From: Candidatus Harrisonbacteria bacterium
Lineage (GTDB): Bacteria > Patescibacteriota > Minisyncoccia > UBA6257 > UBA11618
Assembly (NCBI GenBank): GCA_016867415.1
Contig: VGJO01000001.1
Coordinates: forward strand, 7,823-71,822
DNA length: 64,000 bases
Direction of reading: 5' to 3'
The notes under the pieces are model-generated. The model saw only the letters and a program-made list of their open reading frames with translations, made no database searches and had not been told where the DNA came from. The translations under genes and the position numbers were made by a program. Positions within the stretch are counted from its first letter, which is position 1. The number at the start of each line of letters is the position of its first letter. Below, in pieces: positions 3,064 through 60,624 of this stretch.

Positions 3064-3180
3064 GCACAGGATTTTTGAGAAGATTTTGGATTTTCTTTCT
3101 GAGTACGCATCGGAGCATACTAGTGCTCAAGTATGTGAGAAGCGAACGGAAGAAAAAAATTAAAAATCTTCCAAAATACC
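3064..3180 (+). repeat. Family-1 intergenic structured repeat, copy A
   Basis: Shares with the other copies the 5' AGGATTTTTGAGAAG, an internal CTGAGTAC...CGGAGCATACT-hairpin-AGTATGTGAG...AACGGAAGAAAAAAAT, and the 3' CCAAAATACC. The 5' GAAGATTTT is complementary to the 3' AAAATCTTC. Confidence 0.6.
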
Positions 3181-3184
3181 ATCG

Positions 3185-3538
3185 TTAGCGTACACCAAAA
3201 AAACTTCGGATAACGGGGATAACTGAATAGGAAAGCAATGCCACTATTATACCAATAATCGCGTACGTTAAAATTTTTCTAGCGTCTTCCGTCTTTCCAT
3301 TTCCCAACCAGTTAGCGCTCACGAAGAGAAATGCGGAATAGAGAATCGCTCCCACTGCGATTGTGAGCACAAACACGCGAAAAAAAGCAATGATTCGATC
3401 AATAAGTGAAAGAAATGCTCTCTCATCTTGCACCACCACTTGCCCGCTACTATTAAACTGCCCTGGAAGCTGAGCCATCGCTAACATAGGAAGCACCAAA
3501 TAGGCGCTCGTCATCAAACTAAAAAAAAACTTTTTCAT
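3185..3538 (-). CDS. TrbC/VirB2-like pilin candidate (117 aa; signal peptide plus two TM helices separated by a short charged loop)
   Basis: The signal peptide ends ...LAMA. It is followed by hydrophobic helix 1, the loop NWLGNGKTEDARK, and hydrophobic helix 2. This matches the architecture of T4SS pilins. Confidence 0.5.
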   Translation of the reverse strand: MKKFFFSLMTSAYLVLPMLAMAQLPGQFNSSGQVVVQDERAFLSLIDRIIAFFRVFVLTIAVGAILYSAFLFVSANWLGNGKTEDARKILTYAIIGIIVALLSYSVIPVIRSFFGVR

Positions 3539-3858
3539 TAATATAGCAATGAAAGTCTACGACCTTTATTATTATTCTCATTATACCAAATCCTCCTCAC
3601 CTCGTTGTGGAAAAAATATTATTTATAAAAAAATCACATGTCGTCACGCGAAGTAATTTTGAACTTCTTTTTGTTCTTCTTTCCTAAAAAGGTACTAAGA
3701 GCTACCTGCGGGAAGTTTATGAGAAACATCCTTAGAAAAAAAGATGGGCCTCCACTACTTCTAGATTAAAAAAAGAAGAAAGAGAAGCATCAGCTAAGAT
3801 GGGGTCGGCTACACAAGCAAAAGAAGGCAAAAGTATGAGCACGTCGCAAACAGAGAAA

Positions 3859-4209
3859 TTAACCACACTTCACCTGATACCACGGATATGGACTCCCTCC
3901 AGTAATAGCAAGGAAAAAAGAAGAGATAATCACCCACGATGCCATCACAATAATAAGGCCAATTAGAGCTGTCTTAATAATATTTTTACCAGCTTTTATA
4001 CGCTCTTGTGATTCACCACTAGTGAGAATGACAAGACCGCCCCACATCATAAACATCCCGGCGAGAATAGGTGCCAACGTGGCAAAAAGTTTTATAAAGT
4101 TATCGAGAAGTTTCAGGAGATCACAAAGAGTGCAAAAAGCTTCTCCATTTGGCAAAGGCCGGCCAGAACACTTAGGAAGAAGAGGTCCGACAAATTGAAA
4201 AAGAAACAT
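3859..4209 (-). CDS. TrbC/VirB2-like small membrane protein (116 aa)
   Basis: Cys-containing N-terminus, then TM1 - loop SGESQERIKAGK - TM2, the same core as the neighbouring genes. Confidence 0.4.
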   Translation of the reverse strand: MFLFQFVGPLLPKCSGRPLPNGEAFCTLCDLLKLLDNFIKLFATLAPILAGMFMMWGGLVILTSGESQERIKAGKNIIKTALIGLIIVMASWVIISSFFLAITGGSPYPWYQVKCG

Positions 4210-4261
4210 TATATTTATAGTATATCACAAAAAAAATTGTAAAATGATATACTAAAGAAAG

Positions 4262-6485: not shown

Positions 6486-6737
6486 TGGATAAAGATTAAA
6501 AATCTTTTACTCAGCCCGCCTACTTCACCGCCCCCAACTAATTCTGGCATCACAAGAAATTATCACCTTACCCCTGAATGACCTTCTGGAGAAAAGAAGT
6601 ATGGCTTTTTTATGGTGTTGTTTTATCCTCTTGTTCCCCAAAAACAACACCATGAAAAATTCTTTTTGAGGACTGAATGAAAGTCCGCAGGGACTTTCAT
6701 GTGTCATGAAGGGGTAAGGTGAGAATTTCAAAAAAAC
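6486..6737 (+). repeat. Family-X structured element, copy X1 (candidate ncRNA, ~250 nt)
   Basis: Shares with X2 and X3 the blocks CTTCTGGAGAAAAGAAG.ATGG, a long hairpin ATGGTGTTGTTTT...AAAACAACACCAT, TCATGAAGGGG.AAG, and a terminal TTCAAAAAAA. Confidence 0.45.
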
Positions 6738-6781
6738 TATCCACCCGCGAAAGAAGAATAAAAAAAGGCTTTCGCCCTTTT

Positions 6782-9253
6782 TTATTCTTCTTTTCCGTTA
6801 ATTTCTTTTAAGCATATAGACCCGATAATATAATCTGCGTCGTTCAACGACATTAGTCGGACTCCCTGCGTCGCCCGCGACGCCTCCCGTACGCTCTCAA
6901 GGGTCGTCCGAATCATCTGCCCCTTCGCCGAGAGCACAAAAAGATCCTTCTCCTCGGTAATAAGATGCGCCGAAATCAATTTTCCCGTCTTATTGGTAAT
7001 CTTCGCCGTTAAGATTCCCGAGCCGCCTCTTCCTTGCGTCTTATACTCGCTCATCCTTGTCTTCTTCCCATACCCCTTATCCATAATCACGAGAAACTTG
7101 GCTTTCTTAGCTGCTTCTTTGTCAATCACAGTGAGCGAGCTCACCATGTCTCCCGCATGAAGCCGGATCCCCGTCACTCCCGCCGCTACTCTCCCCATTG
7201 CCCGGATATCATCCTCCGAAAATCGGATCGCCTGCCCAAGCACGGTTGTGAGCACCACCTCATCCTTCCCTGTTGATCGCTTCACAAAGTGGAGCATATC
7301 CCCCTCATGGAGACTGATCGCGATGATTCCGCCCCGCCGCACGTTGGCAAAATCCGACAACGCCGTCTTCTTTACGACTCCTTTTTCCGTCGTCATCACA
7401 AGATACCCATCTGATTCCTGATCCGAGTAAGAGACTAAAGCCGTCACCTCCTCTGAAGAGGGAATCTCAAGAAAGCTCTGAATTGCTTTTCCTTTTGAAG
7501 TCCGGAGCGCTACTGGAATCTCCCACACTTTGGTCTGAAAGACTCGTCCGCGGCTCGTAAAGAAAAGGATATTATCGTGCGTATTTGCGTGCGTGATATG
7601 TGAGATGAAGTCCTCCTCCGCTACCTCTGAGCCTATAAGCCCCTTCCCGCCCCGATGCTGTGATTTATATGTGTCCGGTGCTAGCCGCTTGATATACCCT
7701 CCGCGAGAAAGAGTGATAATCGCCTCCTCCTCCGCAATCAAGTCTGCCTCCGAAAATTCCTTAAGCCCCGACATGACGACCTTGGTCCGCCGTGCATCGG
7801 CAAATCGCTCCTTAAGATCCATCATCTCATCCTTGATGAGCGCCAAAATCTTTTTCTCACTTTTCAAAAGCGCTTCCAAGTCCGCAATCAGCTGATGCTT
7901 TTCCTTAAGTTCATCAATAATCTTTTGTACCTCGAGATTTGCGAGTGTTGAAAGCCGCATTTCAAGAATCGCCCCCGCCTGAATTTCCGTAAAGTCAAAC
8001 TTCTTCATGAGGTTAATACTCGCTTCCTCCCGATCCGCAGATTTCTTAATAGTCTTAATCACCGCGTCAATGTCATCGAGCGCCCGCTTGAGTCCCTCGA
8101 GAATATGAGCTCGCTCCTTTGCTTTTTTGAGATCAAACTCCGCCCGCCTGCGTACGACCACTTTCCTATGGCTAATATGCGCACCGATAATATCAAGAAG
8201 AGTGTGAATCCGTGGCTGGATCCCTTCATGAAGGGCCAGCATATTAAAGTGAAAACTCTTCTGCAAATCCGTGTGCTTATAAAGAAGATTGAGGATCTTC
8301 TGTGGCACCGCATCGCGCTTCAATTCAATCACGATCCGCACGCCATCCTTGTCTGTCTCATTACGCACATCCCGGATGCCCTCAATCTTCTTTTCATTGA
8401 CGAGCTCCGCGATCTTTATGAGAAAATCCGAAATATTCGTCTGATAGGGAAATTCCGAAATAATAATCTCCGAGTCCTCAATCTCCGTCACGCCACGGCA
8501 GACTACTGATCCGCGACCAGTGAGATACGCCTGCTGAATGTCTTTTTTATTGTAAATAATGCCTCCTGTAGGGAAATCTGGTCCCTTTACATATTGAAGT
8601 AAATCCTCGCCGGTACACTCTGGGTTTTCGATCATGTGTATAGTGGCATCGATTACTTCACCAAGATTGTGGGGCGGAATAGAGGTAGCCATTCCGACCG
8701 CAATACCAATACCACCGTTTATTAAAAGATTTGGCACCTTCGCTGGCAAAACTCTCGGCTCCTTGAGTCGTCCGTCATAATTATCTACCCAATCAACCGT
8801 CTCTTTCTCAATATCAATCAAGAGCTCCTCTGAGATCTTGCTCATCTTGCACTCGGTATACCGCATAGCGGCCGCGGCATCACCCTCTGGAGAGCCCCAA
8901 TTGCCCTGACCTACAAGAAGGGGATAACGTAGGGAAAAATCCTGCACCATTCTCGTTATCGTGTCATACACTGCCTGATCCCCATGTGGGTGATAGCTTC
9001 CAAGTACTTCTCCAACTACATTTGCCGACTTACGCAACTTGGCCGTGGAAGTAATCCCGAGACCCCACATCGCCCACAAGACTCTCCGGTGCACTGGCTT
9101 CATTCCATCTCGCACGTCAGGAAGCGCCCGCGAAACAATCACCGACATTGCATAGTCAAGATATGACTGTTTAAGCTCATCCGTAATCTCTCTTGGTTCA
9201 ATCCGTCCAAGAATAATCCCTTCCTCCTGCCCTTTTTCCTTCTTAATCGCCAT
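6782..9253 (-). CDS. gyrA: DNA gyrase subunit A
   Basis: 823 aa; N-terminal ...YAMSVIVSRALPDVRDGMKPVHRR... with the active-site Tyr region, and C-terminal beta-pinwheel repeats. No gyrB is adjacent. Confidence 0.95.
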   Translation of the reverse strand: MAIKKEKGQEEGIILGRIEPREITDELKQSYLDYAMSVIVSRALPDVRDGMKPVHRRVLWAMWGLGITSTAKLRKSANVVGEVLGSYHPHGDQAVYDTITRMVQDFSLRYPLLVGQGNWGSPEGDAAAAMRYTECKMSKISEELLIDIEKETVDWVDNYDGRLKEPRVLPAKVPNLLINGGIGIAVGMATSIPPHNLGEVIDATIHMIENPECTGEDLLQYVKGPDFPTGGIIYNKKDIQQAYLTGRGSVVCRGVTEIEDSEIIISEFPYQTNISDFLIKIAELVNEKKIEGIRDVRNETDKDGVRIVIELKRDAVPQKILNLLYKHTDLQKSFHFNMLALHEGIQPRIHTLLDIIGAHISHRKVVVRRRAEFDLKKAKERAHILEGLKRALDDIDAVIKTIKKSADREEASINLMKKFDFTEIQAGAILEMRLSTLANLEVQKIIDELKEKHQLIADLEALLKSEKKILALIKDEMMDLKERFADARRTKVVMSGLKEFSEADLIAEEEAIITLSRGGYIKRLAPDTYKSQHRGGKGLIGSEVAEEDFISHITHANTHDNILFFTSRGRVFQTKVWEIPVALRTSKGKAIQSFLEIPSSEEVTALVSYSDQESDGYLVMTTEKGVVKKTALSDFANVRRGGIIAISLHEGDMLHFVKRSTGKDEVVLTTVLGQAIRFSEDDIRAMGRVAAGVTGIRLHAGDMVSSLTVIDKEAAKKAKFLVIMDKGYGKKTRMSEYKTQGRGGSGILTAKITNKTGKLISAHLITEEKDLFVLSAKGQMIRTTLESVREASRATQGVRLMSLNDADYIIGSICLKEINGKEE

Positions 9254-9377
9254 AAAAATTAGGTAGCCCCATTATTACAAAAAAAACCTCTTTAGGCAAT
9301 CTACTCAAACCAATGCTTTATTAATCAAAAAAAGAATAAGTGGCCCAAACAGTAATAGTTTTTGAGAGTTTTCGGTT

Positions 9378-9406
9378 GTCATTCCGGCCTCCGAGCCGGA
9401 ATCCAG
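9378..9406. repeat. REP-like palindromic unit GTCATTCCGG-CCTCCGAG-CCGGAATCCAG
   Basis: Identical to the 17881-17909 copy. The stem is ATTCCGG/CCGGAAT. Confidence 0.6.
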
Positions 9407-9463
9407 TTCATTTCCTTTAAACTTCTTCTTAATATTATAAATCGAAAAAAGACCAAAAATTAT

Positions 9464-10569: not shown

Positions 10570-11250
10570 AAAGTAAGAAAGATTTGCATCTAAAATACTT
10601 AAAAGCCTCATAAAAAAACTCCTTGCTCTCATAAAGAAAACAAGGAGTAATTCTATACATTCCGGGCAGAAGTATTTCTACTTCAATTAGATGAGAAAGT
10701 AAGAAAACTCGAAACACCCCTCTCACCCTAAACCCACATTTTTTGAACTAAGGAAGGGAAGACCAGAGTCCAAGAAAAACCTGCCGCGAGGCGAGTCGTT
10801 TCAATAAGAAAGGGTCATTCTTATCTATCCCTCGGAAGACCACTCTACGCCTTACATCGGGAAGTATATAGAATTTTTCACCAAAGAACTAAAAACACCC
10901 TTACTATTCTATAATTATTTTATTTAAAAAGTAAAAATGTACTATTTATAAAGGTTATTGACTATATTGAGAGATATGATATATTTATAAAGTTACTTGG
11001 AATCATGTAGCCGGGTTGGGGTGCTCAACTTCCTCTTTTAATAAAGGATATCCGTGTTGATCCGCGATCACCCGTAGTCGTTCCTTGGTTTCTCCCTCTT
11101 TTTTTTTGAATTCACCCAGCGCCCGAAATGGTGCCTCGGCCAAATAGTCAAATAAACAAAGATTTTGGTCGAGAGAATGAAGGCAGACCATGAAGATTCG
11201 TCGTCTCCTCATTCCTCCGTAGTACTTGACTGCGGACCCCCTCTTACCCT

Positions 11251-11296
11251 CCGCTTCACGTATTCCCCTCAAAGGAACGTGAAGCGGTATTTTTTT
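11251..11296 (+). terminator. Strong intrinsic terminator CCGCTTCACGT-(loop)-ACGTGAAGCGG followed by TTTTTTT
   Basis: 11-bp perfect stem plus T-run, ~680 bp from the nearest upstream plus-strand CDS. This implies an unannotated short transcript ending here. Confidence 0.6.
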
Positions 11297-12772: not shown

Positions 12773-12975
12773 TTCTTTTTTTCTTCAGTAGATCTGTTTC
12801 ACCCAGGAATTTTTCCCTTCAGAAAAATTCCTGCCCCGTGACCGTTTTTTCAAGCTATTAATTTTCCCTTTTAAAACCTGAAAGAATTTTCATTAAAAAA
12901 AAATTATAAAATAATATCTGCATTACCTCCCTCATTTAAAAACATAAAAAAGGGGAAATAATGCGCGTACACATG

Positions 12976-13096
12976 CGAAGTAATTTTGGAGGACTTTTCG
13001 ATTTTATTTCTGAGCAGCGAACGGAACATACTGGAGCCAAGTCTGTGAGCACGCAACGCAAGAAAAAAATCGAAAAGAGCCCAAAAGTACGAGCAC
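12976..13096 (+). repeat. Family-1 structured repeat, copy B
   Basis: The 5' CTTTTCGATTT is perfectly complementary to the 3' AAATCGAAAAG. The internal CTGAGCAGCGAACGG / AACATACT hairpin / GTGAGCACGCAACGC block is conserved. Confidence 0.6.
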
Positions 13097-13103
13097 TAAA
13101 TAT

Positions 13104-13955
13104 ATGATAAAAAATCGTGAACAGAGAGTTGGAATTTTTATTGATATCCAAAACCTCTACCACTCCTCAAAAAACCTCTACTCTGCAAGAGTAAATTATA
13201 AAGAACTCATGGACACGCTTGTCGCAGATAGGAAGCTCGTCCGGGCTATTGGCTATGTCGTCAAGACCGAATCCACTCTTGGCGAATCCTCCTTCTTTGA
13301 TGCCTTGGTAAAGTCCGGTATTGATCTTCGGATGAAAGATATCCAGATCTTCCCTGATGGCATGAAAAAAGCCGACTGGGATGTCGGCCTCGCTATCGAT
13401 GCCGTCCGCTTAAGTAACGCCCTCGACGTCGTCGTCCTCGTGACCGGCGATGGCGACTTCGTCCCACTCGTCGAGTATCTCCGCTGGGGCCTTGGTAAGA
13501 CCGTTGAGGTCGCCGCTTTTGGTCGCAGCGCTTCAAGTAAGCTCAAAGAATCCGCCGACGAATTTATTAATATGGATGAGTTAAACAAAGTCGTCATGCG
13601 CCGACCTGATATCTTTAATAGCAGAAACAATAACAACCAAAACCAATCTTTTGATCGTTTTCCAAGACGCACAAGCTCTCTCCGAAATGAAGGAGGGGAT
13701 CTTTCTTTTGCTAAATCAAAATATCGGGAAGACATCTCTCGCCTTTCAAGAGATGATGAAGAGTATGTGAGAAAGATAGAGACCGGAGAAGCCTCTCAAG
13801 ATGCGGGAAATAAGAAAAAACCCGCCCGCCGTATCCGGGGAAAAAGTGCTCTCACAGAAAAAAAGTCTGAAGCTAAAAATCCCATCCGCACCCGCAAGAA
13901 AATAAATGAAGATAAAAAAACCAACGAATCATATCTCAATGAACGCAACAACTAA
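13104..13955 (+). CDS. NYN-domain (LabA-like) protein with a long basic, low-complexity C-terminal tail
   Basis: RVGIFIDIQNLY...VVLVTGDGDF.PLVEYLR..GK.VEV... is the LabA/NYN PIN-like fold. The tail is K/R/N-rich and overlaps the pnp start. Confidence 0.75.
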   Translation: MIKNREQRVGIFIDIQNLYHSSKNLYSARVNYKELMDTLVADRKLVRAIGYVVKTESTLGESSFFDALVKSGIDLRMKDIQIFPDGMKKADWDVGLAIDAVRLSNALDVVVLVTGDGDFVPLVEYLRWGLGKTVEVAAFGRSASSKLKESADEFINMDELNKVVMRRPDIFNSRNNNNQNQSFDRFPRRTSSLRNEGGDLSFAKSKYREDISRLSRDDEEYVRKIETGEASQDAGNKKKPARRIRGKSALTEKKSEAKNPIRTRKKINEDKKTNESYLNERNN

Positions 13956-16035: not shown

Positions 16036-16087
16036 ATTGTCATTCCGGAATCTATAATCCTAAATAAAAAGGCTGGGACGTGGCACC

Positions 16088-16381
16088 GGCCCTCCAAAGG
16101 GGTGAATCTCTTTTATAAAAAAGTTGAAGACTTTTTATTCGCCCCTCCACCTCCCCTCTGATCTCCCTAATATCCCTTTTTCTCTAATAATGCGCTAAGA
16201 GAAACTTTTTATTTCCCTTGAATGGCTTTCTGGAGGAGAAAAGCATGGTTTTTTCATGATATTATTTTTTTCTTCTTATTCCCCAAAAATAACATCGTGA
16301 AAAATTTTCTCTGAAGCCTAAATAAAAAATTACTGGAGTTTTTATGGGTCATGAAGGGGAAAGAAAAAGTTTCTAAAAAAA
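16088..16381 (+). repeat. Family-X structured element, copy X2 (~290 nt)
   Basis: GGCCCTCCAAAGGGGTGAATCT..., hairpin AAAAAGTTGAAGACTTTTT, CCCCTCCACC, GGAGGAGAAAAGCATGG, hairpin ATGATATTATTTTT...AAAAATAACATCGT, TCATGAAGGGGAAAG, TTCTAAAAAAA. Confidence 0.5.
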
Positions 16382-17878: not shown

Positions 17879-17880
17879 TT

Positions 17881-17909
17881 GTCATTCCGGCCTCCGAGCC
17901 GGAATCCAG
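17881..17909. repeat. REP-like palindromic unit GTCATTCCGG-CCTCCGAG-CCGGAATCCAG immediately after the stop codon
   Basis: Exact copy of the 9378-9406 unit. Confidence 0.6.
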
Positions 17910-18002
17910 TACATTTTCTATCAAATTAATTTTAAAAAGAAAAAAGCGGCGACCTTACAGCCACCGCTTGTTTGAGATTTTTCCGTCTTCCCGTGATGCG
18001 CC

Positions 18003-18895: not shown

Positions 18896-19500
18896 GAACT
18901 TAGAAATAAGACGCTTCTTACCTAATCCTAAAAAGCTTTCGCAGATCTACTCTTGAGATCTTTTTAGGATTAGGTAAGTTAGCGTAAAGACGAATGCTTG
19001 CTTTCCTGAATCTTTTCTTGAACCTACTTGTCACTGGTATTAGGCAACCGTTCTGGATAAGTCGATGAACTTATTCTCCCTGAGCGCGTCTCAGGCAAGA
19101 GAATACCCGTTCGCGGGGTACGGTGAAGACCATCTGTTCGGTTATAAGCTCCGCCAGGACCGACTGGTTAAGCGACAAGGCTTGAGGAAACTCGTACGCT
19201 ACTTGAATATTCTTTTTGTAAGTGGAACCGGTTTCACTTCAAAAAGGAGAGGTCAAGCAAAGCGCGGGTACAGCCGTTCTCCCCAGCAGGGTACAGAACG
19301 TACAAAGAAGTGGGAATCCTCAGAGAAAAATGCAGATCCCTCTGGATCTGCTAATACTCAATCCACTTTCAAAGGTGTGAAAGCACCATCCCAAAAGCTC
19401 ATCACGTGAGAGCATGGGAAAAGGGCACTGCCAAGCGTCGTCTTCTAGCGAAAGCTAGGCGAGCCGGTTTTGTGGGTAATCCCCAAAACCGGTTTTTTTA
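18896..19500 (+). ncRNA. Candidate ~600-nt structured non-coding RNA (family not identified)
   Basis: Starts just downstream of the consensus promoter. An 18-bp perfect stem CTTACCTAATCCTAAAAA/TTTTTAGGATTAGGTAAG sits near the 5' end, and GC content is higher than the genome background. It ends in the intrinsic terminator CCGGTTTTGTGGG-TAAT-CCCCAAAACCGG plus TTTTTTT. The only ORF (114 aa, 19065-19409) has no SD and a low-complexity composition. Confidence 0.35.
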
Positions 19501-19564
19501 TACTTAATTTTGTACAAAAATTATTTCAAGAAAAATATTCAAGTTCAACGTTGCGTTACGCCAA

Positions 19565-19683
19565 GCGCAGGATTTTTTCTTCAGGGCTAGGAGAAAGCGA
19601 GGCTTGCGAGGAAGCATACGTAAGCTGTATGTTGACGAGCAAACGGAGCTTTCGACAACGCCCTGGAGGAAAAAGACAAGCTC
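19565..19683 (+). repeat. Family-1 variant repeat, copy G
   Basis: 5' GCGCAGGATTTTTTCTTCAGGGCTAGGAGAAAG...GTATGTTGACGAGCAAACGGAGC...GCCCTGGAGGAAAAAGACAAGC. The closing stem is CAGGGC/GCCCTG. Confidence 0.5.
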
Positions 19684-19684
19684 A

Positions 19685-21700
19685 TCAATCTTTCTTATCA
19701 GCAGCCTTTCGGGGATCGGTCCACGTCGCATTGTCACATTGCGGATATCTACTACATCCAAAAAATAACCTCCTCCCTTTCTTCGTAAATCTCTTCATCA
19801 TCTCTCCCTCCCCGCACTTATCACACTTCACTCCCGTACTCCTATTATCTGCCTCCGGCTCAATCACCGCTCCCGATTCAGTTTTTACTTCTCCAGTAAT
19901 CTTCTTCGCATTCTTGCACTCCGGAAATCCTGAGCACGCTAAAAATTTTCCATACCGCCCCGCACGCACCACCATTTTTTTCCCGCACTTATCACAAATC
20001 TCATTTGTCTCAATTGGCTCCGGCCGCTCTGCCCGCGCTACCGACTCATACTTTTCCGCTAGATTCTTCGCAAACGGATCATAAAAATCTTTCAGGAGTT
20101 TTTTCCAAGCAATCTTTTTCTCCGCGACGTCATCCAAACCTTCCTCCATCCCTGCTGTAAAACCGACATCCACTATAGTCGGGAAGTGTTCTTCAAGAAG
20201 CGTTGTTACTTTTTCCCCGATCTCCGTCGGGTGAAATCGCCGCTCAATCTTCTCCACGTAGCCTCGCGCCTCAATCGTGCTGATCGTCGGCGCATAGGTC
20301 GACGGTCGCCCCACCCCATTCTCTTCCAAAGCTTTAATAAGAGTCGCTTCACTGTAGCGCGCCGCCGGCTCGGTGAAGTGTTCCTCATACTTCACTTCCT
20401 TTACATCCATCTCCTCCTTTTCTTCCAAAGTTGGCAAAATTACATCCTCTGTCTTTGATGGGTATACCTTAAGAAATCCCGGGAAAAGCATCTGGCTCCC
20501 AGTCGTCTTCAAGATGTGCGGCCCCGCCTCAAAAAGAATCGTCATCTGGTTAAATCGGGCCGGCGGCATCTGTGACGCCAAAAACCTCTTACTAATAAGG
20601 TCATACACCTTCCGCATCGAAGGCTCAAGCGCCTCAATATCCGCCGCGCTCCGATTGAGATGCGTCGGCCGGATCGCCTCGTGCGCTTCCTGCGCCCCTT
20701 TTGACTTCGTCGCGAATCGCCGCGGCGCGTCAGCCGCATACTCCGCTCCCAACTCTTTTTCTAAATATTCCTTCGCCATTGAAAGCGCTTCCGAGGCGAT
20801 ATTTACCGAGTCCGTTCTCATGTAAGTGATCCAACCATTTTCATACAACTTCTGCGCCGCAAACATTGTCTTCTTTGCCGCGTAGCCGAGCTTATTCGCC
20901 GCTGTCTGCGTAAGCGTGCTCGTAGTAAAAGGCGGTGACGGATGCCGTTTCACCTCTTTTTGGGTAATTTCTTTGACTCGTACCGTCGCCACCTTGATAT
21001 CGTCTACAATTTTCTTAGCCGCCGCTTCATCCTGCAGCTCCAGTCGATCCACCTGCTTTCCATACGCTGAAAAAAGCTCCGCAAGGCACGTTGCGGCCGG
21101 ATCTGTCTTCTTCGTAAGCTCCGCCACCACCGAAAAATATCTCGTCGGCACAAACGCCCGAATCTCCCGCTCCCGATCCACAATCAGCCGAAGAGTTACC
21201 GACTGCACCCGTCCCGCCGAGAGTCCTCGCGCCACCTTCTGCCATAAAAACGGCGAGAGTTTATATCCCACGATTCTATCCAAAATTCTTCGGGCTTGCT
21301 GAGCATCTACAAGGCTCATATCGATCCGCCGTGGCGACTTGAGCGCCTCCTGGATCGCTCGCTCCGTGATCTCATGAAAGACAATTCTCTCCGTCTTCTC
21401 TGCATCCAAGCCTAAAGCCGCGGCAAGATGCCAGGCAATCGCTTCTCCCTCTCGGTCTTCGTCAGTGGCAAGCACTACCGCGTCCGCTTTACCCGCCTCT
21501 TTTTTGAGCTTCTTCACCGTCTCTCGCGCTTTAGCTGGAATCATGTACTTCGGCTCAAAATCATTCTCAAGATCCACCCCGATTTTTGACTTTGGTAAAT
21601 CCCGAATGTGGCCAAAAGACGACAAGAGTTCATACCCCTTACCTAAAAATTTTCCGATCGTCTTTGCCTTTGTCGGACTCTCTACAATAATAAGTTTCAT
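19685..21700 (-). CDS. topA: DNA topoisomerase I
   Basis: TOPRIM N-terminus MKLIIVESPTKAKTI, the active-site Tyr region, and C-terminal C4 zinc ribbons (CDKCGKKM...CSGFPEC; CDKCGEGEM...CSRYPQC). Confidence 0.95.
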   Translation of the reverse strand: MKLIIVESPTKAKTIGKFLGKGYELLSSFGHIRDLPKSKIGVDLENDFEPKYMIPAKARETVKKLKKEAGKADAVVLATDEDREGEAIAWHLAAALGLDAEKTERIVFHEITERAIQEALKSPRRIDMSLVDAQQARRILDRIVGYKLSPFLWQKVARGLSAGRVQSVTLRLIVDREREIRAFVPTRYFSVVAELTKKTDPAATCLAELFSAYGKQVDRLELQDEAAAKKIVDDIKVATVRVKEITQKEVKRHPSPPFTTSTLTQTAANKLGYAAKKTMFAAQKLYENGWITYMRTDSVNIASEALSMAKEYLEKELGAEYAADAPRRFATKSKGAQEAHEAIRPTHLNRSAADIEALEPSMRKVYDLISKRFLASQMPPARFNQMTILFEAGPHILKTTGSQMLFPGFLKVYPSKTEDVILPTLEEKEEMDVKEVKYEEHFTEPAARYSEATLIKALEENGVGRPSTYAPTISTIEARGYVEKIERRFHPTEIGEKVTTLLEEHFPTIVDVGFTAGMEEGLDDVAEKKIAWKKLLKDFYDPFAKNLAEKYESVARAERPEPIETNEICDKCGKKMVVRAGRYGKFLACSGFPECKNAKKITGEVKTESGAVIEPEADNRSTGVKCDKCGEGEMMKRFTKKGRRLFFGCSRYPQCDNATWTDPRKAADKKD

Positions 21701-23451: not shown

Positions 23452-23650
23452 TATGGTCATTCCAGGCTCGACCTAGAATCTATACAAACAAATAATCCTT
23501 CATTTACGTTTTTGATAAAGCAATAGCATCCCCAAGCATAAAAGCCCTAGGATTTTTTTCTTAGTACGAGGAGAAAATACAGTAAAGAAAAATATCCTTT
23601 GCATAAAAGCGAAGTGATGCCAAAATCCCTCTAAATATAACAATGCGTAA

Positions 23651-23770
23651 AGCGCCGGATTTTTGGAGGGCATTTCGTCTTTTCTTCTGAGTATGGGACG
23701 GAGCATACTGTGGAAAGTATGTGAGTACCTAACGGAAGAAAAAAGATAAAATGCACCCCAAAATACCAGC
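23651..23770 (+). repeat. Family-1 structured repeat, copy C (immediately upstream of tRNA-Ile)
   Basis: GCGCCGGATTTTTGGAGGGCATTT...CTGAGTATGGGACGGAGCATACT hairpin GTATGTGAGTACCTAACGGAAGAAAAAAGATAAAATGCACCCCAAAATACCAGCG. The closing stem is GCATTT/AAATGC. Confidence 0.6.
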
Positions 23771-23780
23771 GAAAACCAGA

Positions 23781-24009: not shown

Positions 24010-24206
24010 TATTCCTTATTCCTCTTTTTTCTGATATCTAATAAGACTTGTCCGCTCTCCCGGCATTCCTTTTCTTTGTCCTAAAGGGGAAAAAATACTC
24101 GGCTTCTTATAGCTATTAGCGAAGATGGGTCACTTTTATGTACACAAAAAACAATGTATCGCGACAACGCAGAAAAAAATCGCAAAATCAGTCAAACAAG
24201 CTAGCT

Positions 24207-25160: not shown

Positions 25161-25280
25161 ATATGTAAGGAATGTATCAATAGCTCAGCCATTCTAGCAC
25201 ATCCTAAACCCCTATTGCAAAGCCTAAAAAATAGCAGATTTTCTTCTAGATTTTGCCAATATAAACAGGCGTCTTCAGTT

Positions 25281-25405
25281 CCGAAAAATAATTTTTGATA
25301 AAGTTTCGTGATTCTTTTCGAGCAGCGAGCCGAAAATACATAGCGAACGGTATGCGAGCATACAGCACAGAAAAAACCGTGAAATTTGCCAAAAATACGA
25401 GCGCC
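25281..25405 (+). repeat. Family-1 structured repeat, copy D (5'-divergent), ending 15 nt before the uvrD start
   Basis: TCGAGCAGCGAGCC...CATAGCGAACGGTATGCGAGCATACAGCACAGAAAAAACCGTGAAATTTGCCAAAAATACGAGCGCC. Confidence 0.5.
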
Positions 25406-25419
25406 ATCAAAATCGTACA

Positions 25420-33147: not shown

Positions 33148-33410
33148 AAACCTAACTCGAACAATAACCCCAGCCAATTCACCGACAAAGGCCTCGGCAT
33201 CTAACCATGAAGGCATTATAAGATCATTAAACGTTTTTCTTTTTTGCATTCTTAAATGTACTGGATTCCGGCTCGGTGGCCGGAATGACAATCCCTTCAA
33301 AACACTATATATGCCTTGTCTTGCCATAGCGTACTCACGAAGGAGGAGAGGATTTTACGATTTTCTTTATAAATAAATTAAAAATATAGCCCGTCGCCAA
33401 GCGCAGGATT

Positions 33411-33589
33411 TTTGAGTCGAGTTTACGATTTATTTCTGAGGACAAGCCCGGGAGCACTACTAAGAAAAAGGTATGTCGAAGGTATGGAGTACTCTCCGTA
33501 CCGGAGATCTCGAGTGCTCTCGAGGTGAAGGACTTACTGGAAGAAAAAATCGCAAAATTGGCCAAAAAGACAAGCGCCCTACAAGCTAA
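33411..33589 (+). repeat. Family-1 structured repeat, copy E (carries a ~60-nt internal insertion)
   Basis: GCGCAGGATTTTTGAGTCGAGTTTACGATTTATTTCTGAGGAC......GGAAGAAAAAATCGCAAAATTGGCCAAAAAGACAAGCGCC. CGATTT and AAATCG are complementary. Confidence 0.55.
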
Positions 33590-33612
33590 TCAAATATAGT
33601 ATAATACTACTA

Positions 33613-43780: not shown

Positions 43781-44890
43781 ATGAAAATTATTGTTTTAAA
43801 AAATAATCTTAAAGAAGCCTTATCGGTTATTGAACATGGCGTAGGAGATAATAATGCTCTCCCTATTCTTAAAAACGTTCTTATCCAAACAGAAAATGAA
43901 AAAATAGTCCTCCGGACCACTAATCTCGAATTAGCCATTAAAAAAACTCTTTCCGGAAAAATAATTGAACCAGGAGCTATTACCGTCCCTCTTTCTGTTT
44001 TATATTCAATTATTAGCAATCTTTCTGATGAAAAAGTTTCTCTTGATACGAAAGATACCACTCTCCTTATTAGTACAGAAAAATATCAAGCTAAAATTCA
44101 AGGAGTAAAAGATGATGAATTTCCGGTAATTCCCAAAATAGAGACAGAAAGTGTTCTTATTATCGCTTCTCAGGTTCTTAAGAAAGCTATTAGTAAGGTA
44201 TTTTATGCCGCTGAACTTTCCGAGATTCGCCCTGAGATTGGTGGTGTTTTATTTGATTTTCTTACCTCGAATCTTAAATTAGTTGCTACTGATAGTTTTC
44301 GCCTCGCGGAAATGATTGTAAAAAAAGAATTATTTTCTTTTTCCGGTACTTCGGGCTTTAAAGCTATTATCCCTTTAAAAACCGTTCAAGAAATTATCCG
44401 AATTTTTCCCGAAGATGAGATGATAAAAATTTCTTTTGATCCAACTCAGGTATTTCTTCAATCTTCTTCTATTGAACTTATTTCTCGTCTCTTAGAAGGA
44501 GAATATCCAGATTATGAGCAAATAATTCCCAAGACATTTATAACAGAAGTTATTCTTAAAAAAGAAGATTTAGGAAATGCGGTGAAGGTAGTAAGTACGT
44601 TTAGTGGTAAGAATAATGATGTAAATCTTTCATATAGTGATGCTGGTGATATGTCTTTATACTCCTTAAATCAGGTAATTGGTGAAAATAAGTATTCTTT
44701 TTCCGTTTCTGGAAAAGGAGAATCATTTGAAAATATTGCTTATAATTGGCGATTTATTCAAGATGGCCTACGTGCTCTTGAAGGCCCCACTATTTTTTTT
44801 GGTGTGAATGGTTCTGATCGTCCTTCGCTTATAAAAAGCACTGAAAGTGATATTTTTTTTTCATATATCGTAATGCCAATAAAAAAATAA
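43781..44890 (+). CDS. dnaN: DNA polymerase III beta sliding clamp
   Basis: 369 aa, three-domain clamp pattern, conserved position after dnaA. Confidence 0.9.
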   Translation: MKIIVLKNNLKEALSVIEHGVGDNNALPILKNVLIQTENEKIVLRTTNLELAIKKTLSGKIIEPGAITVPLSVLYSIISNLSDEKVSLDTKDTTLLISTEKYQAKIQGVKDDEFPVIPKIETESVLIIASQVLKKAISKVFYAAELSEIRPEIGGVLFDFLTSNLKLVATDSFRLAEMIVKKELFSFSGTSGFKAIIPLKTVQEIIRIFPEDEMIKISFDPTQVFLQSSSIELISRLLEGEYPDYEQIIPKTFITEVILKKEDLGNAVKVVSTFSGKNNDVNLSYSDAGDMSLYSLNQVIGENKYSFSVSGKGESFENIAYNWRFIQDGLRALEGPTIFFGVNGSDRPSLIKSTESDIFFSYIVMPIKK

Positions 44891-50714: not shown

Positions 50715-50906
50715 AAAAATCCCCAAGAAACTTCTTCTAAGAAGGGAAATCTTTTTGATAAATCCACCGAGAAAATTTTATTTTTTCTTTCGTCACATCA
50801 TCACCCAGCGTAAGCGAAGTATTTTTATTTTATCTTCTCGTATTTATATGAACATAAAAGAATTTTCAATTTATTTCATCAGTGCTGGCGTACAATACGT
50901 AAAAGT

Positions 50907-51070
50907 ATAGGATTTTTCCTTAGGGCTAGGGGAAAGAGAATAATAAGAGGAGGTATACTGGGCTAATGTATTTACTGCAAGTAGTGAGTGCTCTCTCTGG
51001 TGTAGGCCCCAAGTACTCGAGGTATAAGACGAGAAATCAGAGCCTCTGATAATGCCCTAAAGAAAAAAAT
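50907..51070 (+). repeat. Family-1 variant repeat, copy I
   Basis: TAGGATTTTTCCTTAGGGCTAGGGGAAAG...GCCCTAAAGAAAAAAAT, with closing stem TTAGGGC/GCCCTAA. Related to copy G. Confidence 0.45.
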
Positions 51071-51092
51071 AGTAAAGATGAATAAAGGCCAT

Positions 51093-52900: not shown

Positions 52901-52963
52901 TTCGCTACATTTTTAGACAAGTTTAAATTAGAGGAGGTATTTAAAAATCGTTGCATCACACAT

Positions 52964-53081
52964 GCGCAGGATTTTTGAGAAGAGTTTGGATTTTCTTTAC
53001 GAGTACCGAACGGAGCATGCTCTAAAAGTCTGTGAGTACGGAACACAGTAAAAAAATTCAAAATATTCCAAAAATACAAGC
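52964..53081 (+). repeat. Family-1 structured repeat, copy F (directly upstream of the polA 5'-3' exonuclease ORF)
   Basis: ~85% identical to copy A: GCGCAGGATTTTTGAGAAGAGTTTGGATTTTCTTTACGAGTACCGAACGGAGCATGCT...GTCTGTGAGTACGGAACACAGTAAAAAAATTCAAAATATTCCAAAAATACAAGC. Confidence 0.6.
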
Positions 53082-53089
53082 TTAACCCC

Positions 53090-57373: not shown

Positions 57374-57377
57374 TGAT

Positions 57378-57405
57378 CATTCCGGACTCCGAGCCGGAAT
57401 CTAGT
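57378..57405. repeat. REP-like unit TCATTCCGG-ACTCCGAG-CCGGAATCTAG immediately after the mutM stop
   Basis: Same family as 9378 and 17881. Confidence 0.6.
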
Positions 57406-57416
57406 TCTTACTTAAT

Positions 57417-58184
57417 ATGATTTTCCTTCTCTACGGCACCGACTCTTATAAAAAAGAGGAAAACCTCCAAGTCATAGTCTCGGAGTTTAAGCGCCGCCAC
57501 GGCAACCCCCTCACCATCAACTTCTTTGACGACAAAAATACCGATCTCGAGTCCGAGCTTCTCTCTCATGCCCGGAGCCAATCCCTCTTCAGCGCTCCGC
57601 GGGCTCTTATCCTTCGCGAGCCCTTTGCCCTCAAAAAAGACGCGCTTCTTATTCCTATATTCAAGCAAGCGATTGATGACCCTAAGCTCATCCTGATTCT
57701 AGTAAGCGAAGCCGCTCCTGATAAAAAATTATCCTTCCTCTTAGAAAAGCCAGTGGTGGTAAAAAGCTACGAGATCCCCGAAGGCAAAGCCTGGCTTGAT
57801 TATGTTCTCCGCGAGATGAAAAAAAGAGGAGTAGAGCCAAAGAAGGGGATAGAGAGGACTCTTGCCACCTATTTTGTGGGCGACCCTTGGGGTCTCGTGA
57901 CCGAGCTTGATAAGCTCTCCCTTGGCGCCTCTCTCGGTAATTATGAGCTTGATACCGCCGGCCTTTTTAACCAAATATTCAGCCTCCGCCCCAGTGCCCG
58001 CTCTCCTCGCAGCCGCCTCGCCACCCTTTACAAGCTATTAAAAAAAGAAGACGCCGCCAAAGTCTTCAATCTCCTCGCCTATCAAAAAGGTGGTCTCCCA
58101 AAAAGCTTTTTCGCCCACGAAGACGTCCTAATCAAGCTCGGTAAGACCGATCACTCCCTCTCCCTCCTTAAAGCCATTTTATAG
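57417..58184 (+). CDS. holA: DNA polymerase III delta subunit-like (HolA family), short form
   Basis: N-terminal MIFLLYGTDSYKKEE... pattern typical of delta subunits; convergent with rpsT as in many bacteria. Confidence 0.55.
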   Translation: MIFLLYGTDSYKKEENLQVIVSEFKRRHGNPLTINFFDDKNTDLESELLSHARSQSLFSAPRALILREPFALKKDALLIPIFKQAIDDPKLILILVSEAAPDKKLSFLLEKPVVVKSYEIPEGKAWLDYVLREMKKRGVEPKKGIERTLATYFVGDPWGLVTELDKLSLGASLGNYELDTAGLFNQIFSLRPSARSPRSRLATLYKLLKKEDAAKVFNLLAYQKGGLPKSFFAHEDVLIKLGKTDHSLSLLKAIL

Positions 58185-58236: not shown

Positions 58237-58500
58237 TTACTTAATCTTCGAAATAGCCTTAGTCAGACGAGATTTCAATCTTGCCGCCTTATTCTTCTTA
58301 ATAAGATTCGTCTTCGCCGCCTTATCGAGCTTCTTATAGACTATTGGCAAGTTCTTTAAAGCCTCATCTTTCTTAGAAGAAGCTGTACTCTTGCGCACTT
58401 CTCGGATTAAGTCTTTCAAGACCTTCCGCTGGCTGTCATTATGCTCTCTCCGGGTCTTATTTTTCCGGATATTCTTTTTCGCTGTTCGTGTATTTGGCAT
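58237..58500 (-). CDS. rpsT: 30S ribosomal protein S20
   Basis: MPNTRTAKKNIRKNKTRREHNDSQRK...KNKAARLKSRL... matches the S20 signature. Confidence 0.9.
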   Translation of the reverse strand: MPNTRTAKKNIRKNKTRREHNDSQRKVLKDLIREVRKSTASSKKDEALKNLPIVYKKLDKAAKTNLIKKNKAARLKSRLTKAISKIK

Positions 58501-58584
58501 TTGTCCAATATAATAAACATCTTTCTCTAAAAAATCAAGCTTCCTTTAATTTCTAATTATTTTCCAGTAAAGTTAGTCATAATA

Positions 58585-59172
58585 ATGATCTATAGTCTTT
58601 CTGGTAAAATAACAAAAATAACCGATTCCTACGCCGTTATAAATGTCTCCGGTGTCGGCTATAAAGTTTTCATTCCCAAGCGCACCGCCGACTTTTTACG
58701 CTCCTCCGCCCTTTCCGAAACCACGCTCTATACCTATCTTGCCGTAAAAGATGATGCCCTTGACCTCTATGGCTTTCTCGAAGACTATGAACTCGCTTTT
58801 TTTGAAAAGCTCATCTCGGTAAATGGCGTTGGTCCCAAAAGCGCGCAGGGGATAATGTCTATCTCGAGCGTCGATGAGCTTGTTGGCGCGATTGTGAGCG
58901 AGAGAGTTGAGCTTCTCACCCGCGCCTCCGGCATCGGAAAGAAGACCGCCGAGCGCATTATTCTCGAGCTTCGCGGTCGTCTCGAGCATCTCGGAGAGCA
59001 AGCCTCCGTCACCTCTCTTGAAAACGATCTTGAGCTCGAAGAAGTGCTTTCTGGCCTAGGTTACAGCCGCTTTGATATAAAGAAACTCCTTAGTGAAAAT
59101 AAAGAAAAAATTACCGGCGACACCCTCCAAATCCGCTTAAAGTCCGCCTTAAAGCTTCTTAAAAAACAATGA
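58585..59172 (+). CDS. ruvA: Holliday junction DNA helicase RuvA
   Basis: MIYSLSGKI...VNGVGYKVFIP OB domain, two HhH motifs (GVGPKSAQ; GIGKKTAERI), and a C-terminal domain. Confidence 0.9.
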   Translation: MIYSLSGKITKITDSYAVINVSGVGYKVFIPKRTADFLRSSALSETTLYTYLAVKDDALDLYGFLEDYELAFFEKLISVNGVGPKSAQGIMSISSVDELVGAIVSERVELLTRASGIGKKTAERIILELRGRLEHLGEQASVTSLENDLELEEVLSGLGYSRFDIKKLLSENKEKITGDTLQIRLKSALKLLKKQ

Positions 59173-60371
59173 TCCTCATAAACTTTTTGCGCAAAATCGC
59201 TCGCAAGACCGGCCTCATTAGTCTCTATCATTACGCGTGGGCGCTTGGCTCCGCCATCCTCTATGGCTTCCCTGGCAAGGACCTCGTCGTGATCGGTGTC
59301 ACGGGTACGAAAGGCAAGACTACTACCATCTCCCTTCTTAAGCATATCTTTGAATATGCCGGCCACCCCTCCGCCATGGTTACTTCCTCCGATATCTGCA
59401 TAGAGGATCAGTGTGAAAAAAATCTTCTGGGTAATTCCATGCCCGGCCGATTTTTTCTCCAAAAATTTCTCGCTCGCGCCAAGCGCGCCGGCGTAGAATA
59501 TGTCTTCGTCGAAGTCACTTCCGAAGGTGTCCGTTTCTTTCGTAATTATTTCCTCCACTTTTCTGGAGCGGTCTTTCTAAATCTTACTAAAGAACACATT
59601 GAGTCTCATGGTTCTTTTGAAAAATATAAAGACGCCAAACTCTCTTTTTTCCGCCGGGCCAAAAAAGAAAATTCCTCTACCAAATTTTTCATAAACAAAA
59701 ATGACTATTTTTCCTCCAAGTTTCTTCTCGCCGCGGGAGGCCAAGCTTTTATTTTTGAAAAAAGCGATCTAGAAAGCCAGCTCTTTGGTGAGCATAATAA
59801 GTGTAATATCGGCGCGGCTACGAGTGTCGCTCACGCCTTTGATATTAATGAATCCCTTATCGAAGAAGCCACCGCAAGTTTTCCTGGAGTCTCTGGCCGG
59901 ATGGATCTTGTCTTTAATAAAGATTTCAAGGTCTTTGTAGATTATGCCCACACCCCAGATTCTCTCTGGGCCGCTTTAGTAGCTGGAGAGGAACAGGCGA
60001 AAAAAAATATTCTAGTAGTAATCGGTGCCGCCGGTGGTGGTCGGGATCGTTGGAAGCGAAAAGAAATTGGTAAAGTAGCCGCTACGTTTGCTAATACTGT
60101 CGTGATCACGAATGAAGATCCTTTTGATGAAGATCCTCGTGCCATCATGGAAGAAATTAATGCCGGTGCCCTTGAGGTCATCGAGAAAAAAGACCACGTC
60201 CGAATAATCGAAGACCGTAAAGAGGCAATTCTCTTTGCCCTTAAAGAAGCGAAAAAAGGTGACGTTGTCCTCGTGACTGGTAAAGGCAGCGAACCCTGGA
60301 TCCGGGTAAAAAATGGTAAAAAAATCCCCTGGAGCGACCATCAAATTATCCACGACTTTTTCAAAAAATAG
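59169..60371 (+). CDS. Mur ligase family protein (MurE/MurF/MurT-like; short, 400 aa)
   Basis: ATP-binding GVTGTKGKTTT, DYAHTPDSL, and a C-terminal ...TGKGSE... block. Confidence 0.6.
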   Translation: MILINFLRKIARKTGLISLYHYAWALGSAILYGFPGKDLVVIGVTGTKGKTTTISLLKHIFEYAGHPSAMVTSSDICIEDQCEKNLLGNSMPGRFFLQKFLARAKRAGVEYVFVEVTSEGVRFFRNYFLHFSGAVFLNLTKEHIESHGSFEKYKDAKLSFFRRAKKENSSTKFFINKNDYFSSKFLLAAGGQAFIFEKSDLESQLFGEHNKCNIGAATSVAHAFDINESLIEEATASFPGVSGRMDLVFNKDFKVFVDYAHTPDSLWAALVAGEEQAKKNILVVIGAAGGGRDRWKRKEIGKVAATFANTVVITNEDPFDEDPRAIMEEINAGALEVIEKKDHVRIIEDRKEAILFALKEAKKGDVVLVTGKGSEPWIRVKNGKKIPWSDHQIIHDFFKK

Positions 60372-60544
60372 TTTTTGTTTCACTGAAAATTTTATTTAAT
60401 AAGGATAATCGTTTCAGCTCCGCGCATGATTTTTTGTCCCTATGATGAGTCTCCGCTAGGAATAGTAGGCTTTAAAAGAAAAAATCAAAGCTTTATTTAA
60501 GAATGAATAAAAAAAGATAAAGTGAACGAAAATAAGTAAGTATT

Positions 60545-60624
60545 AGCAGGAGGTATACATAATCAGTATGTTGACGAGCAAACGAAAGCTTAGACATGCG
60601 TCAGAGGAAAAAAAGACAAGCGCC
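60545..60624 (+). repeat. Family-1 variant (3' half), copy H
   Basis: GTATGTTGACGAGCAAACGAAAGCTT...GAGGAAAAAAAGACAAGCGCC shares its 3' half with copy G. It overlaps the 5' extension of the RNase J ORF, so the real rnj start is probably MKLRFIGG at ~60653. Confidence 0.45.

Follow-up and report, generated by a model that had tools for sequence, protein, structure and literature searches.

Several families of short repeats resembling MITEs (miniature inverted-repeat transposable elements), including ERIC (~127 bp), Correia, and RUP, lie at the ends of bacterial genes, are co-transcribed with them, and alter the fate of the mRNA (PMC3184786). The bcr1 element of the Bacillus cereus group (~155 bp) is also transcribed, and compensatory changes keep its RNA hairpin; such changes are likewise described for some stem-loop repeats of Borrelia (PMC3184786). 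A bias in orientation with respect to replication has been described for transposable elements of the IS200/IS605 group and of other insertion sequence (IS) families (PMC5027513, PMC3971601, PMC6006769). We analysed a 64,000-nucleotide stretch of contig VGJO01000001.1 from Candidatus Harrisonbacteria bacterium (positions 7,823 to 71,822 of the forward strand; hereafter the window), which carries dispersed intergenic copies of a repeat that we call Family-1. The explanation that we regard as probable, though well short of certain, is that Family-1 is a new family of palindromic repeats between genes, specific to this lineage and of the same kind as MITEs, ERIC, and bcr1.

The window was placed within a 97.8-kb contig (Ga0194121_10000231) of the JGI lake metagenome 3300020200. 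A pattern scan of metagenomes brought up a further contig of that sample, Ga0194121_10001821 (20.7 kb, rebuilt from L008 and L011); it carries five Family-1 copies (J1-J5) and one repeat of a second family, Family-2, and is therefore from the same or a sibling genome. These two contigs, together with ~18 kb of extra flank beyond the window, in which no further Family-1 copies were found, form the evidence base for all statements on the repeats. Near-identical contigs (at least 99.8%) from the same population were found in several other assemblies. Copies were sought in the window by direct-repeat search, nhmmer, and a covariance model (CM; model R1), and those recovered are all on the plus strand. 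Overall, Family-1 comprises 16 copies or fragments, 11 in the window (Table 1) and five on the second contig. A degenerate pattern for the core matched five times in the window and never in 100 shuffled versions of it. Identity between copies is low, at ~65-84%, and the unit measures 117-135 nt, or 172 nt in copy E, which contains an insert. All copies listed in a preliminary description of the window were recovered by the CM, nhmmer, and alignments at, or within a few bases of, the positions given there, and the short fragment that it noted at ~24165-24205 proved to be a true 3' half.

The typical unit is ~125-135 nt in length. Its 5' part consists of a small GC hairpin (CGT...GCG), present in most copies, followed by AGGATTTTTG, a T-rich arm, GAGNA, 3 bp, and (A)ACGGA; an apical stem of 6-7 bp (GCATAC/GTATG) forms the centre, and the 3' part continues with GAGNA, 3 bp, AACG(G/C)AG, an A-rich arm, and CAAAAATAC(G/A)AGCGCC. 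The consensus keeps GAGNA, CGGA-CAT-C, GT-TGTGAG-A, and the A-run at 80% or above. In the predicted fold, the GAGNA of one arm stands opposite the (A)ACGGA of the other, twice and with opposite polarity, and two pseudo-symmetric purine-rich internal loops flank a covarying 3-bp helix. Copies A, B, C, and F each fold as one long imperfect hairpin of ~50 bp (z scores of -3.9 to -6.3), and G does likewise (z -5.2); D, A2, H, and I fold no better than shuffled sequences. A kink-turn reading of the GA-rich loops was rejected on inspection of the folds, no dedicated test having been applied, since the bulge is of 1 nt and not 3 and the GA dinucleotides are misplaced.

Covariation of the closing helix, which the preliminary description had proposed, is borne out by the alignments. 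In an alignment of ten copies, 89.2% of the cells are paired, versus 38-54% when the partners are slid along the sequence; double changes affect 18 of the 39 pairs (58 cells), and none of 500 shuffles reached any of these measures. An alignment of five copies contains compensatory double changes in 15 of 39 consensus pairs, and even the closest pair of copies, A and F, still differs by several compensated pairs when read from the alignment. The complementary end segments quoted earlier are present in the folds. The unit has no apparent coding potential: no reading frame is conserved between copies, and the open reading frames (ORFs) of 28-50 amino acids that JGI calls over several of them were judged spurious. 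Nor did the suggested check against Rfam yield a family for Family-1. With Rfam 15, only two tRNAs passed the gathering thresholds over the whole window, and the best hit to copy B at permissive E-values was 18.5 bits against a threshold of 55. The repeat does not have the form of an intrinsic terminator, as its main hairpin is rich in A and U and the sequence after it is ACNAGCGCC, with no U-tract; terminator-like sites in total number 28, versus 24.4 in shuffles, and were flagged in Family-1 only at the small 5' hairpin of B and G.

Folding favours one strand. Sense RNA is more stable than antisense in 10 of 12 copies, by 1-16 kcal/mol (19 kcal/mol in G), and the structural alignment contains 35 G-U cells versus 14 A-C cells; 13 of the former come from two conserved positions. 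The usual deamination bias on a C-rich strand would yield A-C mismatches, not G-U pairs. When DNA parameters are used instead, the asymmetry between sense and antisense shrinks, and G loses significance. The selected fold is taken to be that of the sense single strand, with RNA likelier than DNA because the sense advantage rests on G-U pairs and is reduced in this way. Copies J1-J3 keep the sense-strand advantage despite having neighbouring genes on the other strand, and the advantage is therefore a property of the element and not of co-transcription.

That the repeats are mobile, as the preliminary description had considered, is supported by their absence from the same sites in relatives. Syntenic loci were compared from four of these, L013, L016, and L017 (NYN proteins 77-78% identical) and L022 (UvrD 53% identical), all of which share the gene order S1-S15-NYN-PNPase ... 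topA-dprA ... M23-uvrD-ksgA-T4SS (type IV secretion system). A CM search of these loci gave no Family-1 match, and the family was thus not found in the related genomes compared. The spacer between S15 and NYN is 2 nt in the relatives versus 331 nt here; that between M23 and uvrD is 13-36 nt in three relatives (158 nt in L017) versus 259 nt, that between uvrD and ksgA is 64 nt versus 241 nt, and that between ksgA and the next gene is 9 nt versus 712 nt. In the M23/uvrD spacer, the ancestral GTATCAATA(A/G)C is still recognisable beside M23, and ~230 nt of new DNA precede the uvrD ATG. Since copies are missing from syntenic sites where the relatives have tiny spacers, the repeats are gains in this lineage. 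Coding density is 83.5% in the Harrisonbacteria stretch versus 94.4% in the syntenic relative L013, and 30 of 57 spacers here are 100 nt or longer, whereas in the relatives the spacers measure 1-60 nt or the genes overlap. Patescibacteria have very small, tightly packed genomes. About one-sixth of an 82-kb stretch in this organism is spacer, much of it hairpin repeats absent from the relatives, and repeat invasion can thus loosen even a tightly packed genome and split genes that once overlapped, e.g., S15-NYN-PNPase and M23/uvrD.

All 16 copies are co-oriented within their own contig and lie on that contig's C-rich strand; the skew of the copy-bearing strand is -0.165 in the window and ~-0.13 on Ga0194121_10001821, and it is negative for genes either way round. 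Relative to the genes themselves, there is no such uniformity: eight of the 16 copies point the same way as the gene that adjoins their 3' end and eight do not. All copies are strictly intergenic with respect to called genes, and 11 of the 16 have a 3' end at a distance of 0-18 nt from a start or stop codon. From the 3' end to the start of the next co-directional gene or tRNA, the distance is 9-18 nt for B, C, D, and F and 25-38 nt for E and I; H and J4 are further off. In contrast to these co-directional arrangements, A, G, the fragment, J1, J2, J3, and J5 end 0-9 nt past the stop codon of a convergent gene. Pfam assignments (DUF4015, MacB-type permease, ABC ATPase, and HlyD-type adaptor) confirm that the genes around J1-J3, which are on the other strand, are real; both J2 and J3 run antisense to the HlyD/ABC ATPase/MacB permease operon, J3 being inside it, and the 5' end of J3 is only 37 nt from the start of an oppositely transcribed gene. 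The earlier statement that most copies lie immediately 5' of plus-strand genes therefore does not hold for A, A2, G, and the fragment, which adjoin the 3' ends of minus-strand genes.

Copies G, H, and I had been listed as divergent variants. They are indeed mutually related (I versus G scores 61, with a null maximum of 25; H versus G scores 42, with a null maximum of 26), and they share their ends with E, but they have no overall similarity to copy B (score 15, equal to the null mean). The termini common to G and E are exact, CGCCAAGCGCAGGATTTTT over 19/19 positions and AAAAAGACAAGC over 12/12, and the 3' terminus of I is identical to that of E over 15/15 (AAAAAGACAAGCGCC). Across the subfamilies, the ends are more conserved than the interior. 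Judged from these alignments, G, H, and I are a sister subfamily with Family-1 ends and a different interior. The insert in E (33470-33530) and a similarly placed segment of H (50985-51035) share a 10-nt block, GAGTGCTCTC; this apical segment could be a small nested insert or else a variant with an expanded apex.

Several properties of Family-1 are those of MITEs. The repeat is short, non-coding, multi-copy, and dispersed (16 copies or fragments on two contigs), and there are empty sites in four distant relatives. Truncation and nesting are seen in the 5'-truncated copies (the fragment and I), in 5'-end fragments directly after A and directly before J1, and in the nested apical insert of E. 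The whole unit is an imperfect palindrome, but at the very ends only GCGC-N4/5-TTTTT is inverted, and the terminal CAAGCGC is a direct repeat. The preliminary description had argued that covariation speaks for a structured RNA rather than simple transposon copies. The first part of that argument stands, as the hairpin is structured and compensated; the dichotomy is false, however, because MITE-like repeats also covary (PMC3184786). Covariation among copies within one genome is, by itself, no proof of a host-functional RNA, because mobile palindromes covary too.

If Family-1 is a palindromic repeat family of this kind, its copies would be insertions made in trans by a machinery that recognises both the ends and the fold of the sense strand, and the strand bias would reflect an insertion process tied to replication. 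Almost every copy would be co-transcribed with a neighbour, whether as 5' leader, as 3' trailer, or as a hairpin between cistrons, because the 3' end is so often within 18 nt of a start or stop codon; effects on mRNA processing or stability would then be a by-product and not the reason for the family's existence. The low identity between copies, together with the decayed state of D, A2, H, and I, suggests an old family whose activity has probably ceased. The co-orientation, if true genome-wide, would point to replication-coupled or RNA-mediated insertion in an uncultured lineage.

A number of observations weigh against a palindromic mobile repeat. The terminal inverted repeats are weak (GCGC-N4/5-TTTTT), so that of the two MITE hallmarks named in the preliminary description, the ends are weakly inverted within a palindromic unit and target-site duplications are not consistent. 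There is no excess of such duplications, flanking 5-mer repeats numbering 53 versus 59.5 +/- 10 in mismatched flanks, and the candidate direct repeats are of unequal length (8 nt in E, 6 nt in J3, 5 nt in B, and 4 nt in F); as the copies are old, it is possible that target duplications have been lost by erosion. No transposase, reverse transcriptase, or RAYT gene was found in the ~100 kb examined, and there are no recent near-identical copies. The relatives without the element are distant (UvrD ~52-53% identical), and the inference of insertion thus spans a long period. The databases contain no close relative, the best UvrD homologue being 53% identical, and cluster members at 90% identity or above are from the same population. 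Among the sampled strains, all at least 99.8% identical, there is no presence/absence polymorphism. The strand bias rests on only two contigs, and the GC skew keeps its sign at dnaA, so that the link to replication is a tentative one. Finally, a purely selfish model does not explain why the loop motifs are conserved and why the 3' ends are placed flush.

Table 1. Family-1 copies and fragments in the window (CM, covariance model R1; fold energies in kcal/mol)
Feature	Position	Strand	Type	Match score	Fold	Context and build
Copy A	3058..3190	+	Full-length hairpin	CM 116.8 bits at 3066-3182	RNA fold -37.8, z -4.9	2 nt from stop codon of convergent gene 3185-3538(-); then 14-nt 5'-end-like fragment CGTTAGCGTACACC
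Copy A2	3643..3745	+	Decayed, J3/J4 subtype	nhmmer E=1.3e-6	Not significant	Between two minus-strand genes; absent from the preliminary description
Copy B	12964..13101	+		CM 122.8 bits at 12977-13093	-38.7, z -4.6	Between rpsO (S15) and NYN gene; 10 nt from NYN ATG; 5' part is small hairpin CGCGTACACATGCG then T-run, flagged terminator-like
Copy G	19551..19687	+	Sister subfamily		+ strand -56.1 (z -5.2) vs - strand -37.0 (z -1.5)	Abuts topA stop codon, convergent
Copy C	23646..23777	+		CM 114.6 bits at 23654-23769	-49.4, z -6.3	12 nt upstream of tRNA-Ile(GAT), 23782-23854
Fragment	24164..24206	+	5'-truncated, 3' half only	Local alignment to B 37 vs shuffle maximum 29		Abuts stop codon of M23 peptidase gene 24207-25160(-)
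Copy D	25277..25409	+	Motifs kept, pairing decayed	CM 100.4 bits at 25285-25401	z -0.04	Divergent M23/uvrD spacer; 18 nt from uvrD ATG
Copy E	33390..33600	+	Full termini; ~55-nt extra hairpin replaces apical loop	CM 51.6 bits at 33403-33574	-65.6 vs antisense -51.6	8-nt flanking direct repeat AAATATAG
Copy H	50905..51075	+	Degenerate G-type, first 32 nt kept		Not significant	
Copy F	52958..53088	+		CM 114.0 bits at 52966-53080	-31.0, z -3.9, vs antisense -21.4	Between tsaE and 5'-3' exonuclease gene; 9 nt from exonuclease ATG
Copy I	60547..60625	+	G-type, truncated at the 5' end			RNase J-like gene ~25 nt downstream, counted to AAGGAG-ATG at ~60650, its likely true start

Other explanations share parts of this evidence. 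It is rather unlikely that a repeat of selfish origin has since been domesticated as mRNA punctuation, serving as RNase III-type sites, 3'-end stabilisers, or weak terminators that uncouple once-overlapping genes. A ~50 bp AU-rich duplex with internal loops would suit RNase III on general grounds, the placement flush with start and stop codons fits, and pairing has been kept though copies are only 65-84% identical; moreover, in B and G the 5' mini-hairpin and T-run were flagged as resembling a terminator, this genome contains numerous other hairpins in its spacers besides two further repeat families, and ERIC and Correia elements have such effects (PMC3184786). Even so, the fold advantage stays with the sense strand where only the antisense can be co-transcribed (J2 and J3), no U-tract follows the main hairpin, and the decayed D and A2 indicate that pairing is not maintained everywhere. 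We consider it decidedly unlikely that Family-1 is instead a strand-specific mobile hairpin element, of a kind undescribed in Patescibacteria, propagated via its folded sense single strand by an RNA or single-stranded DNA route. On the RNA route, it would be a retroposon resembling short interspersed nuclear elements and using a host group II intron or diversity-generating retroelement-type reverse transcriptase; the other route would be through single-stranded DNA at the replication fork, and a dimeric mobilising protein would bind to the symmetric GAGNA/ACGGA loops. Such an element would explain the G-U-dependent sense advantage, even in copies antisense to their neighbours, as well as the 16/16 co-orientation and the 5'-truncated copies (I and the fragment). 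It would also explain why sharp 3' ends flush with gene boundaries contrast with ragged 5' sides, and why termini are conserved across subfamilies with unrelated interiors.

The preliminary description had favoured a leader or promoter role, and a host-functional cis-acting RNA, either a 5' leader or a mobile promoter module controlling translation or stability of the next gene, was accordingly weighed; we judge it very unlikely. Copies B, C, D, and F lie so close to a co-directional gene or tRNA that they would be part of its 5' leader, there is no Shine-Dalgarno sequence between element and ATG in B, D, and F, and a promoter-like site (TTTAAA-16-AATAAT, 12935-12962) stands just 5' of B; the better fold of the sense strand and the strong covariation also agree with it. 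The same role cannot be common to the family, however, as A, A2, G, the fragment, J1, J2, J3, and J5 face a convergent 3' end or are antisense within an operon, and orientation tracks the DNA strand. The downstream genes are functionally unrelated, and the relatives have the same genes with spacers of 2-36 nt and no element. Pairing is lost in D, the one copy that sits in a divergent promoter region, and there is no consistently placed promoter: promoter-like sites are no commoner than in shuffles (28 versus 24.5 +/- 5.2) and stand at no fixed distance. Multi-copy, independent small RNA genes with promoters of their own, acting in trans (e.g., through a dimeric protein at the GAGNA/ACGGA loops), are highly unlikely. 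They would account for a sense fold independent of neighbouring genes, for the co-orientation of all copies, and for loop motifs kept at 80% or above while the stems covary. AT-rich -10-like hexamers do occur 17-31 nt upstream of most copies, but their distance is variable and the DNA is AT-rich; in addition, there is no terminator after the hairpin, J3 has little room beside the oppositely transcribed gene start, Rfam has no match, and the loop geometry, by inspection, is not that of a canonical kink-turn. Sites of site-specific recombination that fold as single strands, either integron attC-like or Xer-type, are extremely improbable, even though the repeats are imperfectly palindromic, resemble attC in size, and combine conserved ends and a uniform orientation with variable interiors, and even though a tyrosine recombinase gene (1941-2843) adjoins copy A. 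That recombinase is at the same place in relatives without repeats, the genes between copies are syntenic housekeeping genes and not cassettes, and the termini AAGCGCAGGATTTTT ... AAAAAGACAAGCGCC are unlike the attC cores RYYYAAC/GTTRRRY. TIGR-Tas arrays were rejected, as these consist of tandem ~36-nt units and the repeats here are dispersed 125-nt hairpins.

Family-1 is not the only repeat in this genome, which is unusually rich in intergenic hairpins. Family-2 (~175 nt) occurs at 6563-6736, 16207-16381, and 28735-28909 on the plus strand, and also at L009:938-1068; it contains two internal hairpins, and its closing helix covaries (TCACCTTACCCCTGAATGAC ... GTCATGAAGGGGTAAGGTGA in copy 1). 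Its copies share the orientation of those of Family-1, their ends being 31-46 nt away from a gene boundary, and a shared unit (16063-16121 and 28554-28612) lies upstream of two of them. A third repeat, with the GC hairpin ATTCCGGCCTCCGAGCCGGAAT, is found right after gene ends at 9376-9451, 17879-17946, and 57374-57439 on the plus strand and at 33254-33293 on the minus strand, and is possibly a terminator module. Many other spacers contain palindromes that are long and nearly perfect, or strong folds, as at 1868-1912, 6750-6793, 18917-18978, 23836-23928, 11172-11290, 19390-19540, and 27200-27350, and the segment just after tRNA-Ile folds at -67 kcal/mol (z ~-9). Contigs of other assemblies end at repeats, at ~3656-3797 (A2), 6735, 9378, 16257, and 52969 (F); repeats of Family-1, Family-2, and Family-3 thus fragment metagenome assemblies of this organism.

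The gene content of the window is Patescibacteria-like, with T4SS-type pilins, NYN, DprA, a split PolA, PNPase, and dnaA/dnaN at 42-45 kb. The plus-strand GC skew is strongly negative (-0.2 to -0.35) whichever way the genes run; it steps from ~-0.22 to ~-0.08 at ~42 kb, beside dnaA (42091-43449) and dnaN (43781-44890), but its sign never changes. GC content falls to 0.33-0.36 at 42-48 kb. The 176 amino acid ORF at 631-1161 (+) is spurious, lying antisense within the minus-strand gene ftsH, which extends past the window's left end. The NYN protein (13104-13955) has 283 amino acids versus ~166-225 in its homologues, and its C-terminal extension overlaps the start of the PNPase gene.

A scan with the core pattern gave one match among 185,579 species genomes, labelled Rickettsia, and no enterobacterial match; in JGI metagenomes it matched only contigs from the same lake, probably Lake Tanganyika (metagenomes 3300020197-3300020214), and in IMG/VR viral contigs it matched nothing. 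The Rickettsia-labelled match (L007:6725-6865; JAPYLE010000241.1, from a metagenome-assembled genome labelled Rickettsia endosymbiont of Ixodes persulcatus) is a 130-nt hairpin that lies downstream of a UDP-GlcNAc 2-epimerase-like gene and folds at -58.6 kcal/mol (z -6.9). The hairpin's core, GAGTAGCGTAACGGGCATAC...GTATGCGAGTAACGCAACGCAGAAAAA, is laid out as in Family-1: GAGTA-GCG-TAACGG-GCATAC ... GTATGC-GAGTAA-CGC-AACGCAG-AAAAA. The match scores 39 bits with the CM and 23 bits with nhmmer, which is chance level in 596 Gb, and the query pattern was itself built from Family-1; homology of the two is therefore unproven.

Among the described systems, the IS200/IS605-derived and REP/RAYT elements share with Family-1 a folded single strand and an orientation bias, which in those elements is tied to the replication strand (PMC5027513, PMC3971601, PMC6006769). 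They differ in having either short subterminal hairpins at each end or GC-rich REPs of 20-40 nt, and a specific target tetra- or pentanucleotide, whereas Family-1 is one ~50-bp AU-rich hairpin over the whole unit, with no conserved target and with an RNA fold that is the better supported. It does not belong with REP/BIME sequences, its unit being 3-4 times longer at 35-45% GC; there was no Y1_Tnp match among the scanned proteins and no Y1/HUH gene among the ~100 kb examined. The L007 hairpin, which may or may not be one of the Rickettsia palindromic elements (RPE), is like Family-1 in a length of ~130 nt, a strong fold, and the same core layout.

The Correia (or NEMIS) elements of Neisseria resemble Family-1 in being 100-155 bp in length, hairpin-forming, located at gene boundaries, and co-transcribed. 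The Correia hairpin is a substrate of RNase III. Correia elements differ in that their terminal inverted repeats are 26 bp long and are accompanied by TA duplications, an IHF site, and outward promoters, features that were not found in Family-1, and in that they insert in both orientations. Like Family-1, bcr1 is dispersed, non-coding, and MITE-like, its distribution is not conserved in relatives, and compensatory changes maintain its double-stranded RNA structure (PMC3184786); bcr1 is known to be transcribed and, unlike Family-1, which is unrelated in sequence and has no consistent flanking repeats, is flanked by 5-bp direct repeats. The ERIC/IRU elements of Enterobacteriaceae and Vibrio are not the same family, as Family-1 is unrelated in sequence, belongs to another host phylum, and is AT-rich, with two conserved purine-rich loops, one strand orientation, and no TA flanks; it was set apart by its AT-rich T-arm/A-arm consensus and its Harrisonbacteria host, without a direct alignment to the ERIC consensus. 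ERIC/IRU elements nevertheless correspond to Family-1 in size, in forming a single long imperfect palindrome, in their intergenic location near gene ends, and in the divergence of their copies; they also include variants with an internal insert, as in copy E, and orientation-dependent effects on mRNA stability have been reported for them (PMC3184786).

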